Shown: positions 1-21,918 of the stretch, piece after piece
Numbering within the stretch: position 1 is the first letter of the stretch
Layout: each line of letters begins with the position of its first letter
Virus record (IMG/VR): IMGVR_UViG_2606217100_000005
Source of the DNA: a virus
Taxonomy: Duplodnaviria; Heunggongvirae; Uroviricota; Caudoviricetes
Strand: one strand, 5' to 3'
DNA length: 21,957 nucleotides
The notes under the pieces: model-generated
What the model was told of the DNA's origin: nothing
The model's input: only the letters and a program-made list of their open reading frames with translations
Databases searched by the model: none
Program-made: the position numbers and the translations under genes

Positions 1-300
1 ATGACAAAAACAGTATCAACCAGTAAAAAACCCCGTAAACAGCATTCGCCTGAATTTCGCAGTGAAGCCCTGAAGCTTGCTGAACGCATCGGTGTTACTG
101 CCGCAGCCCGTGAACTCAGCCTGTATGAATCACAGCTCTACAACTGGCGCAGTAAACAGCAAAATCAGCAGACGTCTTCTGAACGTGAACTGGAGATGTC
201 TACCGAGATTGCACGTCTCAAACGCCAGCTGGCAGAACGGGATGAAGAGCTGGCTATCCTCCAAAAGGCCGCGACATACTTCGCGAAGCGCCTGAAATGA
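1..300 (+). CDS. insE: IS3 OrfA (InsE-type HTH transposase subunit), 99 aa
   Basis: Translation [32 protein letters not shown]...AKRLK matches IS3 InsE as recalled; its stop overlaps the start of OrfB. Confidence 0.9.
262..268 (+). promoter_or_regulatory. Putative programmed -1 ribosomal frameshift motif (CAA AAG G) joining OrfA to OrfB
   Basis: A AAG motif sits in the OrfA frame about 30 nt before the OrfA stop. The OrfB frame (positions divisible by 3) is open from at least 264 through the ATG at 297. IS3-family elements are known to make an OrfAB fusion by -1 slippage at A-AAG. Confidence 0.45.
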
Positions 301-1163
301 AGTATGTCTTTATTGAAAAACATCAGGCTGAGTTCAGCATCAAAGCAATGTGCCGCGTGCTCCGGGTGGCCCGCAGCGGCTGGTATACGTGGTGTCAGCG
401 GCGGACAAGGATAAGCACGCGTCAGCAGTTCCGCCAACACTGCGACAGCGTTGTCCTCGCGGCTTTTACCCGGTCAAAACAGCGTTACGGTGCCCCACGC
501 CTGACGGATGAACTGCGTGCTCAGGGTTACCCCTTTAACGTAAAAACCGTGGCGGCAAGCCTGCGCCGTCAGGGACTGAGGGCAAAGGCCTCCCGGAAGT
601 TCAGCCCGGTCAGCTACCGCGCACACGGCCTGCCTGTGTCAGAAAATCTGTTGGAGCAGGATTTTTACGCCAGTGGCCCGAACCAGAAGTGGGCAGGAGA
701 CATCACGTACTTACGTACAGATGAAGGCTGGCTGTATCTGGCAGTGGTCATTGACCTGTGGTCACGTGCCGTTATTGGCTGGTCAATGTCGCCACGCATG
801 ACGGCGCAACTGGCCTGCGATGCCCTGCAGATGGCGCTGTGGCGGCGTAAGAGGCCCCGGAACGTTATCGTTCACACGGACCGTGGAGGCCAGTACTGTT
901 CAGCAGATTATCAGGCGCAACTGAAGCGGCATAATCTGCGTGGAAGTATGAGCGCAAAAGGTTGCTGCTACGATAATGCCTGCGTGGAAAGCTTCTTTCA
1001 TTCGCTGAAAGTGGAATGTATCCATGGAGAACACTTTATCAGCCGGGAAATAATGCGGGCAACGGTGTTTAATTATATCGAATGTGATTACAATCGGTGG
1101 CGGCGGCACAGTTGGTGTGGCGGCCTCAGTCCGGAACAATTTGAAAACAAGAACCTCGCTTAG
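297..1163 (+). CDS. insF: IS3 OrfB (InsF-type DDE/rve transposase catalytic subunit), 288 aa
   Basis: Integrase-core-like segment ([31 protein letters not shown]...HTDRGGQY...) and recalled identity to IS3 InsF; frame is -1 relative to OrfA. Confidence 0.9.
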
Positions 1164-1193
1164 GCCTGTGTCCATATTACGTGGGTAGGATCA

Positions 1194-1307
1194 CAGCACG
1201 ACATGCTTGTACTCGGCTGCATCAATGTTCTTACGTAGCTTGTCAGCTGCTTTCCACAGGATGACCTCTAACGGGTCTGTTTTGATTTCTTTAGGTTTTC
1301 TTGCCAT
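1194..1307 (-). pseudogene. 5' fragment (38 codons) of a type I restriction-modification methyltransferase (HsdM-like) gene, cut off by IS3
   Basis: Minus-strand ATG at 1307 gives MARKPKEIKTDPLEVILWKAADKLRKNIDAAEYKHVVL, then runs into the IS3 terminus. The LWKAADxLR...YKHVVLGL pattern is the typical N-terminus of HsdM-type N6-adenine methyltransferases (recalled family pattern, not searched). Confidence 0.5.
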
Positions 1308-2043
1308 TGGCGTAACTTCGTGAATTAGGATGGTAGCCCTATTTTGCCTTAAAGTTCCGCTTGTTACGAGCTTATACAGCGATTAATTATTATCTGATTT
1401 TAGTGTTTTCGTTCAGCTCAGCAAGTGCAATGACTCATGGGGTAAGTGCTTTGTAACAGGGTTGTTGATGTCAGTCGTTGGCCCTCAATGGAGTCACGGT
1501 CATAGGCATAATTGCTGTATAGCTGTTAATGTTTGTCTGGGTGAATTTCTACTATTCGGACTAACACCAAGTGAGTTCCATACTACATAACTGTGAGAAT
1601 TTTCTGTACCCTTCACTCTATCCTCTTCTTGCATATTTACAGGAAGATAAAGCAAAAGATACAAAACTTTGTAATCAAAAAACTGTCTTAATGTACTTAC
1701 ATCACGTTTAGTTATTAAATTTTTTGTCATGGTGAAAATTTTTACTTGGTCATTAAAATTCATCGGGTGTTAATATTCTAAACGAATAGGATGTCAAGCT
1801 AAAATGATGTGTCAAGTTGTTTGTAAAGTGAGAGGTTTATTTTTGGAAGAAATGCTTAAGAGAAGTATATATGATATTTGCCTGAATATAATTATTGATA
1901 TGCAAGGTTGGCAGAGGTTTTCTTTCTTTTCTAACCGAAGGGAAGAAAAGCAAGGGGAACTCGAAGAAGCAAGCGCAGCGGCTTCGCAGAGTTAGCCCTT
2001 GCTTCTCTTATAATTGGCATTATTCATTCAAGAACAATAGGAT

Positions 2044-2063
2044 CTTCGCTTGTACAAGCGAAG
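2044..2063. repeat. 20-bp perfect palindrome CTTCGCTTGTACAAGCGAAG in AT-rich non-coding tract
   Basis: Read directly: CTTCGCTTGT is the reverse complement of ACAAGCGAAG. Related GCGAAG/CTTCGC motifs occur nearby (about 1964-2007). No adjacent T-run, so not an obvious terminator. Confidence 0.8.
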
Positions 2064-2718
2064 CTATAATAAAAACAATCAATTAATTATTTTTAAAGTA
2101 TTAAACAAGAACCTATTGACATTCATAAAATACAAGTTATTTATAATGTATGCCATAAATAAAAAGTTTTATGTCATATGTATCCTGCACTATGTGCAGT
2201 TAATGTACCACTTGTCCCATAGATGGGAATATTGGAAAGGTTACTTTGTTTTGAAGTAGCCTTTCGTCCTTCAATATTAACGATTACTTATTGCTATTAC
2301 CAAGTCCAGTCGAATCGAAGAACATCTTTTATCTGAAACGACTCCTAATACCCGGTTAAAGCCACAATATCTCTCGCATACGTAGACCAAAGAAAAATTA
2401 TGATATTAAATATGTGATTTTTTTTAGTGTTAAGTTGAATAATTAAATACTGGAGAGTTTTCTGTGCACTACCAATTGCTGGTTCATCTGTTCTGCCGCT
2501 GATGTTTCTGACGAATCTCCCGGTGACACAGAACTGTCCCTCTCTACCAGCCTTTATTCGACTCAATGTCCGGCTGCTGATACGCAGTTATCCCTTCGTA
2601 TCAATGACTTACACTTAAACGTAATGCTTTGGTTGCTGGCGTATCTGACAGCTTCTTCGGCGTGAAGGTCGTTGTGTAAGTATACTTCTTGGTTTATTTA
2701 GGCTATATAAAACCATGA

Positions 2719-6336: not shown

Positions 6337-7566
6337 TTATGCGGCAATAACTTTGCATTTTTGAGACGAAACATAGTCACTCCACCATTGCATGAGAACC
6401 ACCCGTTCAGTGAGATACTCTGCACGATTGTAGGCTGCAATTATTTCATCTTTCTTCGAGTGGGCAAGGGCGGCTTCTAAGACATCAGTCCTAAACTTGC
6501 CAGACTCCTCAGCAGCCGTTCTAGCAATGGATCGCATACCGTGAGCTACAAGCTCACCTCCGAAACCCATACGGATTATGGCCGCATTAGCTGTTTGTTC
6601 ATGCATGTGATTGAGTGGAGCTTTGATACTGGGGAACACCCACTCTCTATGCCCGCTGATGACTTTCATTAAATCCAAAACTCGCAAAGCTTCTTTGCTC
6701 AGTGGAACTTTGTGAGGCTTCTTCATTTTCATAAACTCCGCCGGGATGTTCCACATGCCAGTTTCAATATCAATATCTGACCATCTTGTGCGAACAGCTT
6801 CACCTGGGCGAACCCATGTGAGAAGTTGCCACTCAATCAGTAGCCTTGTTTCCAAACGGATAGAAGCATTGTTTAGAGCAACCAAGAAGCGAGGGAGTTC
6901 GGAAGGGGGTAATGCTGGCATATTCTGTTTTTTTGGCTTGCTGAACCGTTGCCCCAGGTTGTCTGCCGGGTTGAATTCTATGAGTTCTTCTGTTGCTGCA
7001 TAGCGGAAAATTTCATTCAGGCGGGATATGATGCGGCGAAGTGTTTCAAGGACACCTCGTTTTTCTATGGGTTCTAAATGCTGTTTAAGCATTTTAGGGC
7101 GAATCTCCTTAATTGGGGTATCACCCAATGTGGAAAAGATATTTCTCTCTAGGCTTCGCCAGATGTCGTTAGCATGATCTTGGGAGATGCCTGACGTTTT
7201 GACTTTCTCATCAAGCCACTTCTTGGCTACTGCTTGAAATGTATGTTCCGTGGCATCTTTCAGTGCATTGGCTTTTTGGTTGTTATGAACTTGGGGGTCT
7301 ATACCATTTGTAAGCAACGACAAGTATTCATCACGTAAAGCTCGTGCCTTCGCAAGTGTAAGGTGAGGATAGGTTCCTAAGCTCACCTTAGTTCGCTTTT
7401 TGGTCACAGGCACTGCATATCTGAAATACCAATTTTTCTTCCCTCCCTTCGCCAGGGGAGCGATTCGCAACAGCAAACCATCGCCGTCAAAAAGGTTAAC
7501 CTCTTTTTCGGCAGGTTTGGTGCTTTTGATTTCAGTGTCAGTGAGCTTCTTAGCGATTTTGGCCAT
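6337..7566 (-). CDS. Tyrosine integrase, P4/CP4-57 (IntA-like) family, 409 aa; ORF extends to 7647 but the ATG at 7566 is preferred
   Basis: N-terminus MAKIAKKLTDTEIKSTKP...LFDGDGLLLRIAP is the P4-type arm-binding domain; C-terminal HGMRSIARTAA...AYNRAEYL holds the catalytic tyrosine region. Lies next to the ssrA 3'-end repeat in the same orientation as int follows ssrA in E. coli K-12. Confidence 0.85.
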   Translation of the reverse strand: MAKIAKKLTDTEIKSTKPAEKEVNLFDGDGLLLRIAPLAKGGKKNWYFRYAVPVTKKRTKVSLGTYPHLTLAKARALRDEYLSLLTNGIDPQVHNNQKANALKDATEHTFQAVAKKWLDEKVKTSGISQDHANDIWRSLERNIFSTLGDTPIKEIRPKMLKQHLEPIEKRGVLETLRRIISRLNEIFRYAATEELIEFNPADNLGQRFSKPKKQNMPALPPSELPRFLVALNNASIRLETRLLIEWQLLTWVRPGEAVRTRWSDIDIETGMWNIPAEFMKMKKPHKVPLSKEALRVLDLMKVISGHREWVFPSIKAPLNHMHEQTANAAIIRMGFGGELVAHGMRSIARTAAEESGKFRTDVLEAALAHSKKDEIIAAYNRAEYLTERVVLMQWWSDYVSSQKCKVIAA

Positions 7567-7663
7567 GTTTGGGACCCTCGATTTTAGGACCCATCTTCGT
7601 GGGTCCCATTCAGGGTGCCATAACTCGTAGTTCTCAGCAATTCTCACTAGACTACAATAGACG

Positions 7664-8190: not shown

Positions 8191-9006
8191 ATGTTGCAAC
8201 CAGCAAAAAAAGCATCAGTTATTAGCGCGCGGCTAACTAAATACCTCAAAGATGGAGTGAGGATTGATGACTTTAGCTTTAGAAGGATGTTACGTGAGAT
8301 TGAAGCACTTAGAGATCCTGTCTCTGAGGACTATCTTTTAGCGTTGGTCTATGGTGCACATGGCCAAGTGAATGAGGCGATAGGCTTCTTTGAGCGTTCC
8401 TTGCAGGTATGCCATAATGAGGTTGTTGCAAAGAATTTTCTTGTTTTCTTGTCAGATTACGGTACGTTGAAGAAAAGCTTTGAAACAAGCATTAAGCTTG
8501 CTGAAAGCTTCATATCCCCGTTTATTTATCTTCAAGCTTATGAAAACTCCCTCTTTATGGGGAAGATGGCGTTGGCGGAGAAGTATTTCCAGTCATACTC
8601 TAAATTGTTCGGAGATAAGGAGCCTGAAAAAATGGACAACAATCTTGATGAAGTTGTTTCCCAGGTCGAATCCTTTAAGCAACGTGCCGATCTTTCTGGT
8701 TTAGAATATGAACTTATTTTCAATAATGTAGCCAATGTCATGGATTCTCAGAAGGTTCATCTTTCGGGAATGCGTTTTTATAATATTTCGGAAGAGAAAG
8801 TGAATGCGATTGTATTCATGACAAAGTCTTCTGATGCTGAACAAATCGCTGATATGAATATTGAGCTTGCTTTTTCAATGGCTGAGCACGATTGTTTAGT
8901 CGGTAAAGATTTTGCTGTTTGGTTTGAATGTAAAGACACACATATTGAGCAGAATGCTATCTCCGAATTAGGTCTGATTACCCGGAGGGTTGCACATGCC
9001 GGTTAA
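8191..9006 (+). CDS. Hypothetical protein, 271 aa (no family recognised)
   Basis: Long ORF with ATG start and AAGG upstream; predicted helical, AT-rich; its last 11 nt overlap the next ORF. Confidence 0.6.
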   Translation: MLQPAKKASVISARLTKYLKDGVRIDDFSFRRMLREIEALRDPVSEDYLLALVYGAHGQVNEAIGFFERSLQVCHNEVVAKNFLVFLSDYGTLKKSFETSIKLAESFISPFIYLQAYENSLFMGKMALAEKYFQSYSKLFGDKEPEKMDNNLDEVVSQVESFKQRADLSGLEYELIFNNVANVMDSQKVHLSGMRFYNISEEKVNAIVFMTKSSDAEQIADMNIELAFSMAEHDCLVGKDFAVWFECKDTHIEQNAISELGLITRRVAHAG

Positions 9007-9379
9007 TAGTCAAGATTTTCTCGGTTTTGCAAAAGACTGTCATCAACGTAATGACGAAATCGGCTATCGAAATGCTATAGCAAGATCCTACTATGGCGCT
9101 TACCATCATGTCTTGCCTTGTATGGTAAACGGGCCGAAAGACAGTCATCAGGGGCTAATCAATTATTTGCAGGGCGATGCTTCAAGAGGAAGTGAAGTAT
9201 ATGAAGCTAGATATCTAAAAGGGATTAGTTTTATCCTGAGTCAACTTAAAGCTCAGAGGATTGTTGCAGACTATCGACTTGATCAATCGGTCACTTCTAA
9301 ACAGTCTGAAGTTGCGATTCTAACAACTGAGAGGCTCTTTGCTAAGTGTACGGAAATGCTTAAATCGAGAGCCTCCTAA
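8996..9379 (+). CDS. Hypothetical protein, 127 aa from ATG 8996 (ORF opens at TTG 8990); contains an Rx6H motif (RSYYGAYH)
   Basis: GGAGGG lies 6 nt upstream of ATG 8996. The Rx4-6H pattern is the HEPN signature, but that assignment is speculative. Ends at an intrinsic terminator. Confidence 0.55.
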   Translation: MPVNSQDFLGFAKDCHQRNDEIGYRNAIARSYYGAYHHVLPCMVNGPKDSHQGLINYLQGDASRGSEVYEARYLKGISFILSQLKAQRIVADYRLDQSVTSKQSEVAILTTERLFAKCTEMLKSRAS

Positions 9380-9385
9380 TTGATA

Positions 9386-9411
9386 AAGCCACTTAAGTGG
9401 CTTTTTTTGTG
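9386..9411. terminator. Bidirectional intrinsic terminator (AAGCCACTTAAGTGGCTT + T-run)
   Basis: 18-bp palindrome followed by TTTTTGTG on the plus strand; the stop codon of the minus-strand int gene lies inside the stem. Confidence 0.7.
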
Positions 9412-10565
9412 ATATTGCTGGTCGTATTACCGTCATATTCCTTTAAATATGAACCATAATGACGAAATAACATTTCCGGCCCTTTATGCCCCATTTGAGC
9501 TGCAAGCCAAAACAGGTTTGCTCCCCGGCTGATATGGCGGGTGGCGAATGTATGCCTAGTTTGATATGGATTTCTGTAACGAATACCTGCTTTTCGCAAT
9601 GTTGGCACCCATGCTTTTTTCCTGATTGCATCAGCACTTGCCCAAGGCTTATTGGTCTTTGGATCTTCAAAGACAGTAGTATCCTTCATGAATGTAAATG
9701 GCTTCTGATTTATCAGCGCCAACATTGCCTCTTCTGTCAGTTCAACTTTCCGAGTACCTGCTTTTGTCTTTGTCCCTTTGATAACACCGACAACACTTGC
9801 GCTCTGGACATGGGCAGTTTTTCCAACAAAGTCGATATCACGCCATCGAAGGGCACATAATTCAGAACTACGCAGGCCTGTATGTATAGCGAACCGGAAC
9901 AGATTTTCCCATTGTTTGTTTCCGGCTGCTGCTAGTAATGCATCAACTTCTGCTGGTGATAGCGGATCAACTACGTAGCTGCTTTCTGCTTCTGACTTAT
10001 CACTTTGGTAGCGCGAAGCTGTTACTAACGATACGGGGTTAATTTGAAGTACCCCATCGGTCACGGCTTCATCAAGTGCTGACCGCAGGAAAGATAACTG
10101 GTTGCGAATTGTTTTTAAGGTCGTTTTCTGATTTTGAATCCACGCTTTCAGGGTTGCTGGTGTTAATTCACTTGCAGGGCAAATGTGAAGTGAGGCTAAC
10201 GCACTACGGCATTTTTTATAGCCACCAATCGTAGAGGGTGAAAGTTTTCTTGTTTCGCAGATTTCAAGATATTCGTCCAGGTACATCTTTACCGTTTTGC
10301 CTGCAGCAGCATTACCAAAAATTTTCAAACGAGCAGAACGGGGAAAATATTCTGCATAAATGAATGTTCCCCTTTCGATCTTATTATGGATTTCGCCGAG
10401 TGTACGCTCGGCGTATTTAATGTTCTTTGGTGTTACTTCCAGATTGGAAAGCGGCTCACGACATCTAACTCCTTTGTAGGTGAAAGTTATATTGATCGTT
10501 TCTCCCTGGCGGTGTTTCCTGATTGTTACGCCGCGCGGTAGTTTGAGCAGTTTTGTCTGGCCCAT
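9393..10565 (-). CDS. Tyrosine integrase, lambdoid type, 390 aa
   Basis: N-terminus MGQTKLLKLPRGVTIRKHRQGETINITFTYKGVRCRE (arm-binding domain of lambdoid integrases); C-terminal RHTFATRHISRGANLFWLAAQMGHKGPEMLFRHYGSY has the catalytic R/H/Y region. Confidence 0.85.
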   Translation of the reverse strand: MGQTKLLKLPRGVTIRKHRQGETINITFTYKGVRCREPLSNLEVTPKNIKYAERTLGEIHNKIERGTFIYAEYFPRSARLKIFGNAAAGKTVKMYLDEYLEICETRKLSPSTIGGYKKCRSALASLHICPASELTPATLKAWIQNQKTTLKTIRNQLSFLRSALDEAVTDGVLQINPVSLVTASRYQSDKSEAESSYVVDPLSPAEVDALLAAAGNKQWENLFRFAIHTGLRSSELCALRWRDIDFVGKTAHVQSASVVGVIKGTKTKAGTRKVELTEEAMLALINQKPFTFMKDTTVFEDPKTNKPWASADAIRKKAWVPTLRKAGIRYRNPYQTRHTFATRHISRGANLFWLAAQMGHKGPEMLFRHYGSYLKEYDGNTTSNITKKAT

Positions 10566-16610: not shown

Positions 16611-16915
16611 TTCTGCCATTCCGGGACGTTACACTGTTCAGGCACCTTATAAAGCGGGTGCCGGGATTGGCGTCCTGGAAATGTTATCGGCGATATATGA
16701 CGCGCCAGCGTCTTTTTTATCGTCTGCGTCTGCGCACACCCAAATTATGGTGGGCTGGACGGGGGCACCGAAAGGTGCGCCGGTTTCCGATAACGCCGGT
16801 TACGCCAACCCCGTTCAGTTCACCACCAGCGAAATTGGCGTTTCCGGTGGTGAAGGTAATTCACTGTTATCGGAGGCTGCCATCATGGCTACTGTCCCAG
16901 CCCTCACTCGTCTGA

Positions 16916-17395
16916 ATGATGAAGACTTACATAAACTCAGTTATTGCACCGCCAGATATTCCGGCAGGCTTCGTGGCTGTTTTCAACAGTGATGAGGCAT
17001 CGTGGCATCTCGTTGAAGATCATCGGGGTAAAACGGTTTATGACGTAGCGTCAGGGGACGCGTTATTTATTTCTGAACTCGGTCCGTTACCGGAAAATGT
17101 TACCTGGTTATCGCCGGAAGGGGAGTTTCAGAAGTGGAACGGCACAGCCTGGGTGAAAGATGCAGAAGCAGAAAAACTGTTCCGGATCCGGGAGGCGGAA
17201 GAAACAAAAAACAGCCTGATGCAGGTAGCCAGTGAGCATATTGCGCCACTTCAGGATGCTGTAGATCTGGAAATCGCAACGGAGGAAGAAACCTCATTGC
17301 TGGAAGCCTGGAAAAAGTATCGGGTGTTGCTGAACCGTGTTGATACATCAACTGCACCGGATATTGAGTGGCCAGAAGAACCAGACACCGTGTAA
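16916..17395 (+). CDS. Tail fibre assembly protein (lambda Tfa family), N-terminally shortened, 159 aa
   Basis: From [52 protein letters not shown]... to the end it closely follows lambda Tfa as recalled. The first 9 residues are unrelated and no tail fibre gene precedes it. Confidence 0.8.
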
Positions 17396-17464: not shown

Positions 17465-18283
<819 letters not shown>

Positions 18284-18644
18284 TCATTGCAAGGGCTCAC
18301 AACCAGTAGTGTTGAGAAAACCATCGGAGAAATGAGGCTAAGCCTTTGAATTTACATAGTACAAAAAAGATACTTTTCCTCATAATGTGAGCTAATTTTA
18401 TGTTTCGTTTGATGATTGGACCGGTCTCGAAAACCGTAGACACATAGTATGCGTTAATTTATGAACAAACTACTTGTCTGCTGTTTTTCTGTCATTAGTC
18501 GTATATAGAATGATTCTCTATGCCTAACAAAGCATCACCAGTGCTAGATTACGTTGTAGTCACTGTTTAAATATCCAGATAAAACATTTCCTTCTGGGTT
18601 GAATGAGTGATAAAGTTTCACCCATTAGACCCCTTGGAGGAATT

Positions 18645-20078
18645 ATGTCTGAATTTGAAGTGTTGGCACAGCATCTGCTGAAGGAAGCCGAGGCGGAAGA
18701 AAAGCTGCGACAGGAAAATGATAAAAAGCTTATCGAGAAAGTGCTGGAAATCTATGATCAGAAGTATGTGGCTGAATTACTGAGAAAAGTCGGAAAAAAT
18801 GAGTGGAGCCGTGAAACCATTAACCGCTGGATTAATGGCAAGTGTTTACCAAAATCGTTGACTTCAGTAGAAGAGTCTCTTCTGCGTAAGATGCTACCAG
18901 AACCACCTGCAAACCATCCGGAATATGCTTTCCGCTTCATTGACTTATTTGCTGGAATTGGAGGGATACGGAAAGGTTTTGAGGCCATTGGAGGCCAGTG
19001 TGTTTTTACCAGTGAATGGAATAAAGATGCTGTGCGTACATACAAGGCCAACTGGTTTAACGATGAACAGGTGCATAAATTCAATCTCGATATTCGGGAA
19101 GTCACGCTGAGTGATAAAACCGATGTATTGGAAACGGATGCTTATGCATATATTGATGAGCATGTGCCGGATCATGATGTGCTTCTTGCGGGGTTCCCGT
19201 GCCAGCCATTTAGCCTTGCTGGTGTTAGTAAGAAAAACTCACTTGGTCGTGCGCATGGTTTTGAATGTGAAGCACAAGGAACACTTTTTTTTGACGTGGC
19301 ACGTATTATACGAGCAAAAAAACCGGCAATTTTTGTGCTGGAAAATGTCAAAAATCTGAAGAGCCATGATAAGGGTAAAACTTTCAAAGTCATTATGGAG
19401 ACCCTTGACGAGCTGGGCTACGAAGTTGCCGATGCTGCAGAAATGGGAAAAAACGATCCAAAGATTATCGATGGGAAGCATTTTTTGCCTCAGCATCGTG
19501 AACGCATTGTTCTGGTCGGATTTAGACGAGATCTGAATATTCACAAGGGGTTTACCTTGCGTGATATCAGTCGTTTTTATCCGGAACACCGCCCATCATT
19601 TGGTGAATTGCTGGAGCCTGTAGTCGACAGTAAATATATACTTACGCCAAAACTATGGGAGTACCTTTATAACTACGCCAAAAAGCATGCAGCCAAGGGG
19701 AATGGTTTTGGCTTTGGGTTGGTCAATCCTGAGAATAAGGAAAGCATTGCACGCACACTTTCTGCCAGATATCACAAAGACGGATCAGAAATTCTTATTG
19801 ATCGTGGTTGGGATATGGCAACGGGAGAGGCTGACTTTATGAATGAGAGTAATCAGGCTCGTCGACCACGCAGGCTGACTCCCCGAGAGTGCGCACGCCT
19901 TATGGGATTTGAAAAACCTGGAGGGAAACCATTCCGTATTCCGGTTTCAGATACTCAGTCATATCGGCAGTTCGGTAACTCAGTTGTGGTGCCAGTATTT
20001 GAAGCTGTTGCCAGACTTCTGGAACCCTATATCCTCAAAGCTGTTTCTGCTGATGCTGGTAAGACTGGGCAGCCTTGA
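18645..20078 (+). CDS. DNA (cytosine-5) methyltransferase, Dcm/M.EcoRII family (CCWGG-type), 477 aa from ATG 18645 (ORF opens at 18603)
   Basis: Motif [19 protein letters not shown], motif [19 protein letters not shown], and a C-terminal [10 protein letters not shown]; extensive similarity to E. coli Dcm as recalled. GGAGG 5 nt upstream of ATG 18645. Confidence 0.9.
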
Positions 20079-20112
20079 GAACATCTCCCGGCCTTTTAAG
20101 CCGGGAGTCAGC

Positions 20113-21327
20113 CTATGATAGTTCAGCGTAAAGCTCTATCAGCTCAGTAATGAATGCTCCGAGCGTTATTAATTCTTCTCTAACTGCTTCTGGGTATTTT
20201 TTATGTAAAGTTGATGGTACAACGAGTCTGACACCCGCATCTTTCATTTCTCGGTATTGTGCTGAAGAAACACCTTCTTGCAGTGTAAATAAATGTACCT
20301 GATGGATTTTATCTGCTTCATTCAGTATCTGACGCCAGCGATCTTTGCAGGTGGTCTTTACTGCCAGCATACGTAAGTTTTCTACAGGAAATTCAACGTT
20401 ATGATATGCCTCTGCTGAAGGAAACAGGAAATCTGGTTTTTTATTACCTTCAGTAACTGCCTGAGTGGAGAAATGCCGTAGTCCGTGCTCGATAAAAAGC
20501 TTCTCTAGGTGAAGTTCAAGTGATTTGCCTGCCCTTGATTTACGTCGATTACTGACAGAGTTGGCTAATGCAATAAACTCATCTACAGAATCGAATCCTT
20601 TCTTAATAATATCAAGAACATGTAATTCCTCGACGAGTAGAAAAATATCATACTCGACACGCCGACGGTCAATCAGTTGCTCATCTGGATCCTTGGAGTT
20701 TTTAGCATAATGGCCAGCAGCATATTGAATAATTTCGTTTCCAGAAGGAAAACGCTTCTTCCAGTCTTCAGGAATAACATATTTATGATTTACTGGAGTT
20801 TGCTGAAGAGACAATCCGCCCAAAATTTGTCCGGCAGGGCCGGAAATTAGGGTTCCAGGTATGATTTCGCCAATAGCAGACTCGATGATATCCTCTTCAT
20901 CGGGATTGACGCAGACCCATATATCTACCTCGGAACAGTCAGTGTTCTGTTCGTTTAACCTGAAAGCAAGAATTGTGAGGGCTCCTGTATTTTCAGGGTT
21001 CTGTAATGGACTTCCTCTCCCCCAGCGCGTAATTCTTTTTTCGTTTCGGGTCTTACCAAAATAACGGTTGTTGTAATAAATTGCGCGTGCTTGGGTATCA
21101 GGGCAATCATGGGATGATACATGCGCAGTAAGGAAGACTGAAGGGTTCAGTTCGCGAGTATGATTGATAGATGGAAAAAGCTTTTCAACGATATTTGAGG
21201 GGATATAAAGTCCGACCTGATGGCCACCTGTTGCGCCTGTGTCGTTTGCAGAAAGGCGTTTGATGTAGATAAAGTAATTCCCGCTTGCGATATCAAGCAG
21301 CCAGTTATGAAAAACCGACATATACAT
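20113..21327 (-). CDS. EcoRII-like type IIE restriction endonuclease, 402-404 aa
   Basis: Convergent with the Dcm-family methyltransferase; length and N-terminus (M)SVFHNWLL...YIKRLSANDTGATGGHQVGLYIPS match EcoRII as recalled. Confidence 0.75.
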   Translation of the reverse strand: MYMSVFHNWLLDIASGNYFIYIKRLSANDTGATGGHQVGLYIPSNIVEKLFPSINHTRELNPSVFLTAHVSSHDCPDTQARAIYYNNRYFGKTRNEKRITRWGRGSPLQNPENTGALTILAFRLNEQNTDCSEVDIWVCVNPDEEDIIESAIGEIIPGTLISGPAGQILGGLSLQQTPVNHKYVIPEDWKKRFPSGNEIIQYAAGHYAKNSKDPDEQLIDRRRVEYDIFLLVEELHVLDIIKKGFDSVDEFIALANSVSNRRKSRAGKSLELHLEKLFIEHGLRHFSTQAVTEGNKKPDFLFPSAEAYHNVEFPVENLRMLAVKTTCKDRWRQILNEADKIHQVHLFTLQEGVSSAQYREMKDAGVRLVVPSTLHKKYPEAVREELITLGAFITELIELYAELS

Positions 21328-21555: not shown

Positions 21556-21918
21556 TGGTGGAGCTGGCGGGAGTTGAACCCGCGTCCGAAATTCCTACAT
21601 CCTCGGTACTACATGCTTAGTCAGTCTTTACATTCGCTTGCCAGCTGCGGACGGACACGCCACTAACAAACTAGCCTGATTAAGTTTTAACGCTTCAACC
21701 CCAGGCAGGGCTTCCACGCGATCTCTTTTGGGTTTGACCTCTCTTGATCCCCGTCCTAAGAGCGGAGGCTAGGGAGAGAGGGCTCTAAGCAGGTTATTAA
21801 GCTGCTAAAGCGTAGTTTTCGTCGTTTGCGACTATTTTTTGCGGCTTTTTACGAGGCCAACCGCCCCTCGGCATGCACCTTGGGTTTCGCAAATCCCGTC
21901 GAATCCAGAATCAGCCCC
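21556..21918 (-). ncRNA. ssrA: tmRNA (SsrA), complete, 363 nt
   Basis: Reverse complement begins GGGGCTGATTCTGGATTCGACGGGATTTGCGAAACCC, contains the tag-peptide reading frame GCAAACGACGAAAACTACGCTTTAGCAGCTTAA (ANDENYALAA), and ends ...GGTTCAACTCCCGCCAGCTCCACCA; matches E. coli ssrA from memory. Confidence 0.97.

Follow-up and report, generated by a model that had tools for sequence, protein, structure and literature searches.

When an insertion sequence transposes within the molecule that carries it, there are two classical outcomes, a deletion or an inversion, each anchored on the resident copy. IS3 itself (IS3 family, IS3 group) is 1258 bp in total and is bounded by imperfect terminal inverted repeats of approximately 39 bp with the ends 5'-TG...CA-3'. 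Adjacent deletions caused by IS3-family elements, which lack a target duplication, are anchored on an earlier copy and grow over time, have been documented (PMC11708052). A comparable arrangement is found at the left end of the window analysed here, the term being used for the whole 21,957-nt stretch of DNA, where the right end of an IS3 copy abuts a truncated type I hsdM gene. This junction is likely to have arisen by an IS3-anchored deletion of approximately 28 kb and not by simple insertion, the left flank of the window itself being taken from relatives with an identical junction.

The first 1193 nt of the window (1..1193, plus strand) represent nt 66-1258 of the 1258-bp element. They show 0 mismatches to the last 1193 nt of the complete 1258-bp IS3 of strain GPEC87-32-644 (hereafter GPEC87) and 0 mismatches to a complete copy in strain ZYB62, and RefSeq labels both of these copies 'IS3-like element IS3 family transposase' (WP_085947771.1). 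The window begins at the ATG of orfA, with the left inverted repeat (IRL) and the first 65 nt of the element falling outside it. Among the listed open reading frames orfA (1..300, plus strand) encodes a 99 aa HTH DNA-binding protein (Pfam HTH_Tnp_1, E=5e-10) and orfB (297..1163, plus strand) encodes 288 aa with the DDE/rve catalytic domain (Pfam rve, 97.8 bits, together with rve_2 and HTH_21). orfB overlaps orfA in the -1 frame, giving a programmed-frameshift OrfAB transposase, and RefSeq carries the note 'programmed frameshift'. The right terminal inverted repeat (IRR; 1155..1193, plus strand) was recognised by its pairing with the left repeat. It ends ...GGATCA, its reverse complement TGATCCTACCCACGTAATATGGACACAGGCCTAAGCGAG matches the left repeat TGATCTTACCCAGCAATAGTGGACACGCGGCTAAGTGAG of complete IS3 copies, and the final letters of the element are ...GGGTAGGATCA, the last lying at 1193. 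The overlapping HTH and DDE/rve frames, the CA at the end of the IRR and the presence of the IRL in identical complete 1258-bp copies are all in agreement with assignment to IS3. No 3-bp target duplication is present at junctions of this type in GPEC87 (ATG/CAG) or strain SW071614 (AGT/CAG), which can be attributed to the deletion and is no argument against the element being IS3.

Directly beyond the element lies a minus-strand reading frame of 38 codons (1191..1307 including its stop) which starts with an ATG at 1307-1305 and translates as MARKPKEIKTDPLEVILWKAADKLRKNIDAAEYKHVVL*. The coding portion is an hsdM' pseudogene stub (1194..1307, minus strand) comprising codons 1-38 and only the start of the HsdM_N domain, as determined by identity with intact hsdM and by comparison with Pfam HsdM_N. 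The junction falls exactly after codon 38, and the TGA stop of the truncated frame (1191..1193, minus strand), read directly from the sequence, is supplied by the IS3 terminus, being the reverse complement of its terminal TCA. The stub is identical at 114/114 nt to nt 1-114 of the intact 1548-nt hsdM of strain 26561, which past nt 114 reads GGC CTG ATT TTC (G L I F L K Y I S D), GGCCTGATTTTC... When the 38-aa product alone was compared with Pfam it matched HsdM_N (PF12161, positions 3-26) with 24.7 bits (E=4e-5), just reaching the gathering cutoff of 24.5. By these comparisons the frame is no chance reading frame; it is a remnant of the methyltransferase subunit gene of a type I restriction-modification (R-M) system and, having no catalytic domain, is predicted to be non-functional. 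Longer stubs of the same hsdM at other IS3 junctions are named by RefSeq 'type I restriction-modification system subunit M N-terminal domain-containing protein'. A first-pass annotation of this DNA had described a minus-strand frame running from 1307 to the right terminus of IS3 (1193/1194), with coordinates and translation that proved exact, and its recognition of an N-terminal pattern typical of type I M subunits is borne out by the 114-nt identity and the HsdM_N match.

The right-hand DNA from 1194 onwards is carried by approximately 44 complete E. coli genomes, about 30 of which have a full 1548-nt hsdM that starts at the start of the stub; the complete genome that best matches the window covers 87% of it and carries hsdM intact. 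An intact operon occupies this exact place in strains 26561 and ZYB62, with the gene order hsdM-hsdS-hsdR, an S subunit of 373 aa and an HsdR of 1079 aa (TIGR00348, 593 bits). The intact HsdM is 515 aa in length and contains HsdM_N (89.7 bits) and N6_Mtase (360 bits, residues 156-478) domains in Pfam. Its best PADLOC model is MTase_I (634 bits). Among solved structures the best match is 3khk, a type I M subunit (E=7e-141), with EcoR124 (E=1e-40) and EcoKI (E=2e-16) being more distant. In its HsdM_N and N6_Mtase domains and its S and HsdR subunits the intact allele is like other type I R-M systems, whereas the window has only codons 1-38, with the N6_Mtase catalytic domain absent and neither hsdS nor hsdR present. 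BREX PglX and type IIG proteins are large fused methyltransferases without separate S and R subunits, found in a BREX or stand-alone context. A reading of this kind, which had been kept as a hedge in the first-pass annotation, was rejected since the intact allele is an MTase_I protein of 515 aa with separate hsdS and hsdR genes and no BREX model was present among the 25 best PADLOC models shown. The parent gene of the stub is, on these domain and gene-order comparisons, a canonical type I hsdM.

The exact junction, with the IRR followed directly by CAG..., is present in two complete genomes, GPEC87 and SW071614. Among other independent assemblies it is read through by the draft contig of the window itself and by a second one (L011), and another two end 1 nt before it. 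Draft contig JNQW01000031.1 (GCA_000704365.1) matches the window with 100% identity and stops within IS3, 22 nt beyond the left end of the window. A scan for the exact junction in one genome per species gave 0 matches. When the 38-aa product was looked up in public assemblies, four E. coli drafts (L010-L013) were found to carry or adjoin the junction. One further match (L014), with another upstream context and its end exactly at codon 38, is uninformative. Five metagenome matches (L015-L019) were set aside as false friends: they continue ...CTGGG and the contigs end inside an intact hsdM without IS3. These contigs end 0-2 nt from codon 38 of the intact gene, such that gene callers give the same 38-aa 'protein', and their ends probably reflect branching of the assembly graph at the conserved GLIFLKY motif.

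How the junction arose can be judged from the complete genomes. Undisturbed IS3 copies are flanked by a 3-bp duplication, as in strain 26561 (GAT-IS3-GAT) and ZYB62 (ATG-IS3-ATG). In GPEC87 the last letters of the left flank of the junction IS3 are ...CCCTATG. In SW071614 they are ...ACCAGT and belong to a truncated alpha-amylase gene; the right flank is CAG in both genomes and no 3-bp duplication is seen in either. The first-pass annotation had proposed looking beyond IS3 for such a duplication and for the remainder of the gene, and in these two genomes, which are all of the complete genomes with the junction, neither was found. When the whole GPEC87 chromosome was searched for the first 800 nt of hsdM, a single place was returned, matching nt 1-114 only, with nt 115-800 absent elsewhere. 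The GPEC87 left flank with the left end of IS3 was found in 79 complete genomes, and the matching right junction in 72, which marks the GPEC87 IS3 site as common and ancestral. In ZYB62 this resident IS3 is in the same orientation, hsdMSR is intact and the distance from the right end of IS3 to hsdM nt 114 is 28,102 bp. GPEC87 and ZYB62 show 0 mismatches over 3 kb of left flank and their IS3 copies are identical, so that the element and one flank are unchanged and the 28,102 bp lost are contiguous with the IRR. The ZYB62 DNA that is missing from GPEC87 comprises hsdM codons 39-515, hsdS, hsdR, an IS1, a second IS3 and ankyrin-repeat, relaxase, MarR, SIR2 and integrase genes; besides the hsdM remainder, hsdS and hsdR, approximately 22 kb of island cargo has been lost. 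GPEC87 therefore represents the ZYB62 arrangement minus 28.1 kb, and we infer the same for the window. The lack of a duplication, the lack of an hsdM remainder and the undeleted arrangement in ZYB62 together argue that the junction marks an IS3-adjacent deletion. The left flank of SW071614 differs from that of GPEC87 despite the common junction, which means that at least one further IRL-side rearrangement has taken place in some lineages. The first-pass annotation had taken the R-M locus to be inactivated or rearranged by IS3, which agrees with the destruction of the operon in relatives that share the junction. Its description of the event as an insertion is upheld only in that IS3 truncates hsdM, as what the relatives show is the loss of about 28 kb in a deletion anchored on IS3, a possibility for which that annotation had itself allowed.

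Under the deletion reading, a resident IS3 lying approximately 28 kb away in the distal island, and in the same orientation, would have had its right end joined to hsdM nt 114. Such a joining would remove everything between the resident IS3 and hsdM nt 114, with complete loss of the type I R-M system. This may have occurred by a transposase-mediated intramolecular event, which would be a classical IS-adjacent deletion, or a new IS3 may have inserted at hsdM nt 114 and then recombined with the resident copy. The two routes would give the same products and the data fit both.

Further rearrangements of the same region were found in other genomes. Strain 13C1079T has the same IS3 and left flank, with the IRR joined at the equivalent of window position 2485, that is 1.29 kb further in, a deeper nested deletion. 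In PSS-07 the IS3/amylase flank is the one common to a group of eight genomes with a junction at hsdM nt 202, and the endpoint lies in hsdS. There are thus nested, variable endpoints from the same anchored element in GPEC87 and 13C1079T, and from a second anchor in PSS-07 and the nt 202 group. Additional IS3::hsdM junctions, in which both orientations are represented, occur at nt 180, approximately 191, 202 (the same eight genomes), 352 and 557, and an IS1 junction lies near hsdM nt 1220 in strains 22F46 and 23CRST022. In strain 41 (L027, NZ_CP076285.1, 6222-18883) an IS3-mediated inversion splits hsdM at nt 180. Here nt 1-180 adjoin one IS3. The remaining 1.37 kb lies, together with hsdS and hsdR, approximately 11 kb away in the opposite orientation next to another IS3 copy, which is inverted, and this 3' part of the gene has its own annotation as a 'SAM-dependent methyltransferase'. 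Both of the new junctions carry the 3-bp target GGT, with the resident-site ATG at the two other ends, and the occurrence of GGT at both is proof of transposase cutting inside hsdM.

The strongest competing explanation, which we regard as unlikely, is a simple IS3 insertion at codon 38 in the source genome, with the rest of hsdM, hsdS and hsdR still present to the left of IS3 behind a CAG duplication, as an intermediate preceding deletion. The window and its source contig end inside IS3, before the left flank, and a route by insertion and later recombination would necessarily have passed through this intermediate. Against this, neither complete genome with the junction retains an hsdM remainder or a duplication, and a same-site 3-bp duplication is absent from all 14 complete genomes in which IS3 is joined to hsdM at any position. 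In a census made with the first 800 nt of hsdM, to which matches were 89-100% identical, coverage was at least 80% in 322 of 337 matching genomes; 14 of the 15 truncated-hsdM genomes were the characterised junction genomes, all of the island lineage with nearby IS3 copies, and a simple insertion within these 800 nt was seen in no complete genome. The confinement of the characterised truncations to the IS3-carrying island lineage points to the local action of resident IS3 copies.

An IS3-mediated inversion like that of strain 41, in which the rest of hsdM would lie elsewhere in the island in the opposite orientation beside a second IS3, is less probable still. Strain 41 shows exactly this at nt 180, only 66 nt from the junction of the window. 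However, in strain 41, the sole proven case and the one on which this comparison rests (two other '-' junction types being left aside), the stub-side IS3 is inverted with respect to the resident copy, whereas the IS3 of the window has the resident, deletion-type orientation, and GPEC87, with that same orientation, has no hsdM remainder genome-wide. A chimeric join of the IS3 repeat to the hsdM 5' end during assembly is highly improbable: the source contig is a draft built from short reads and breaks off within IS3, and metagenome contigs often break at the same codon of intact hsdM, but the identical junction is present in two complete chromosomes and in the further read-through draft contig (with two more stopping 1 nt short), and it falls precisely at the canonical IS3 terminus.

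Besides supporting an IS3-anchored deletion in the window, the relatives show a concentration of endpoints in one part of hsdM. In a census of 44 genomes, six of the seven independent IS3 junctions within hsdS and hsdM fall at hsdM nt 114-557 (114, 180, 191, 202, 352 and 557), with only one in the other approximately 2.1 kb of the two genes. Four of them lie within 89 nt, those at nt 180, 191 and 202 being spaced by 11 nt. The cluster comprises window 1194-1307 and the corresponding sites in L003, L004, L006, L021 and L024. A rough scan statistic gives p of approximately 0.005, to be read in the light of a census that covers hsdM and hsdS and not the DNA left of hsdS, and of nested extension, which could link events. 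The cluster could reflect a regional target preference or chance, and it is doubtful, though conceivable, that strand transfer by IS3 has a regional hot spot in the 5' part of hsdM. IS911-type elements target sequences that resemble their own ends. An IS3-end-like attractor in hsdM was rejected, as inverted-repeat probes of 30 nt and 12 nt had best matches in nt 114-557 that were no better than those in the rest of the operon. Base composition was also rejected as a cause, the 5' part of hsdM being 42-50% GC and unremarkable relative to the rest of the operon. If there were a hot spot, a structural or nucleoprotein target feature would steer IS3 and type I R-M would be lost repeatedly, in parallel, from the island. 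The repeated independent IS3 junctions in the first third of one gene are in themselves mildly notable.

The island is an integrative one in the ssrA-ileY interval of E. coli, and its other genes include those for a tyrosine integrase and a large serine recombinase and two that are ParB/RepB-like. The 1.4 kb that separate hsdM from the first ParB-like gene (1308-2718) are AT-rich (approximately 27-42% GC) and without an annotated complete gene. RefSeq relatives have a 112-nt IS3-family transposase remnant at about 2534-2645 of this spacer, which also holds an inserted IS1 in SW071614 and 1916D18 and the IS3 deletion endpoint at 2485 in 13C1079T. An Rfam search of window positions 1-2718 gave no RNA family matches, and a promoter and terminator scan of 1100-2750 found no more sites than in shuffled sequence. 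Two plus-strand ORFs of 271 aa and 129 aa (8191-9379) between integrase genes at 6337-7647 and 9393-10565 have no Pfam or PADLOC match. The same slot holds other genes in relatives, such as those for STAS-like/DUF4325 proteins in 13C1079T and L013, which suggests that it is a variable cargo slot. Rfam places isrK at 16642-16718, a C4 antisense RNA at 16743-16830 and the IS009 sRNA at 17154-17352 (all plus strand), and the tmRNA gene ssrA at 21556-21918 (minus strand). A full-length match to the anti-phage protein PD-T4-3 (17465-18238, minus strand; PADLOC 464 bits, 256/256 positions) with a LEM-3-like GIY-YIG nuclease domain sits in a prophage-like element beside ssrA. Adjoining ssrA is an EcoRII-like type II R-M pair (18603-21327), consisting of a C5-cytosine methyltransferase (18603-20078, plus strand) and an EcoRII-N/EcoRII-C endonuclease (20113-21327, minus strand), so that the strain would have lost its type I system but kept one of type II.

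The deletion would explain why this strain is without the type I restriction system that its sister strains carry, and this loss may alter the methylome and the barrier to foreign DNA. The closest described counterparts are the IS150-anchored deletions of the E. coli long-term evolution experiment (PMC11708052), in which, as here, one flank is kept, the other side is lost, no duplication is present and endpoints are nested. The present case differs in that it concerns natural isolates and IS3 itself, that a defence operon and island cargo are lost and that the order of steps is not traceable in time. Strain 41, in which hsdM is split at nt 180 between inverted IS3 copies, is likewise similar to described IS-mediated inversions, whether these arise by intramolecular transposition or by recombination between IS copies, whereas the junction of the window is oriented as in a deletion and has no known second junction. 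Events such as the IS3-anchored deletion found here are already known and are not new in kind. The locus illustrates cleanly, in nature, how a defence island is altered by IS3-anchored deletion, by nested deletion and by inversion.
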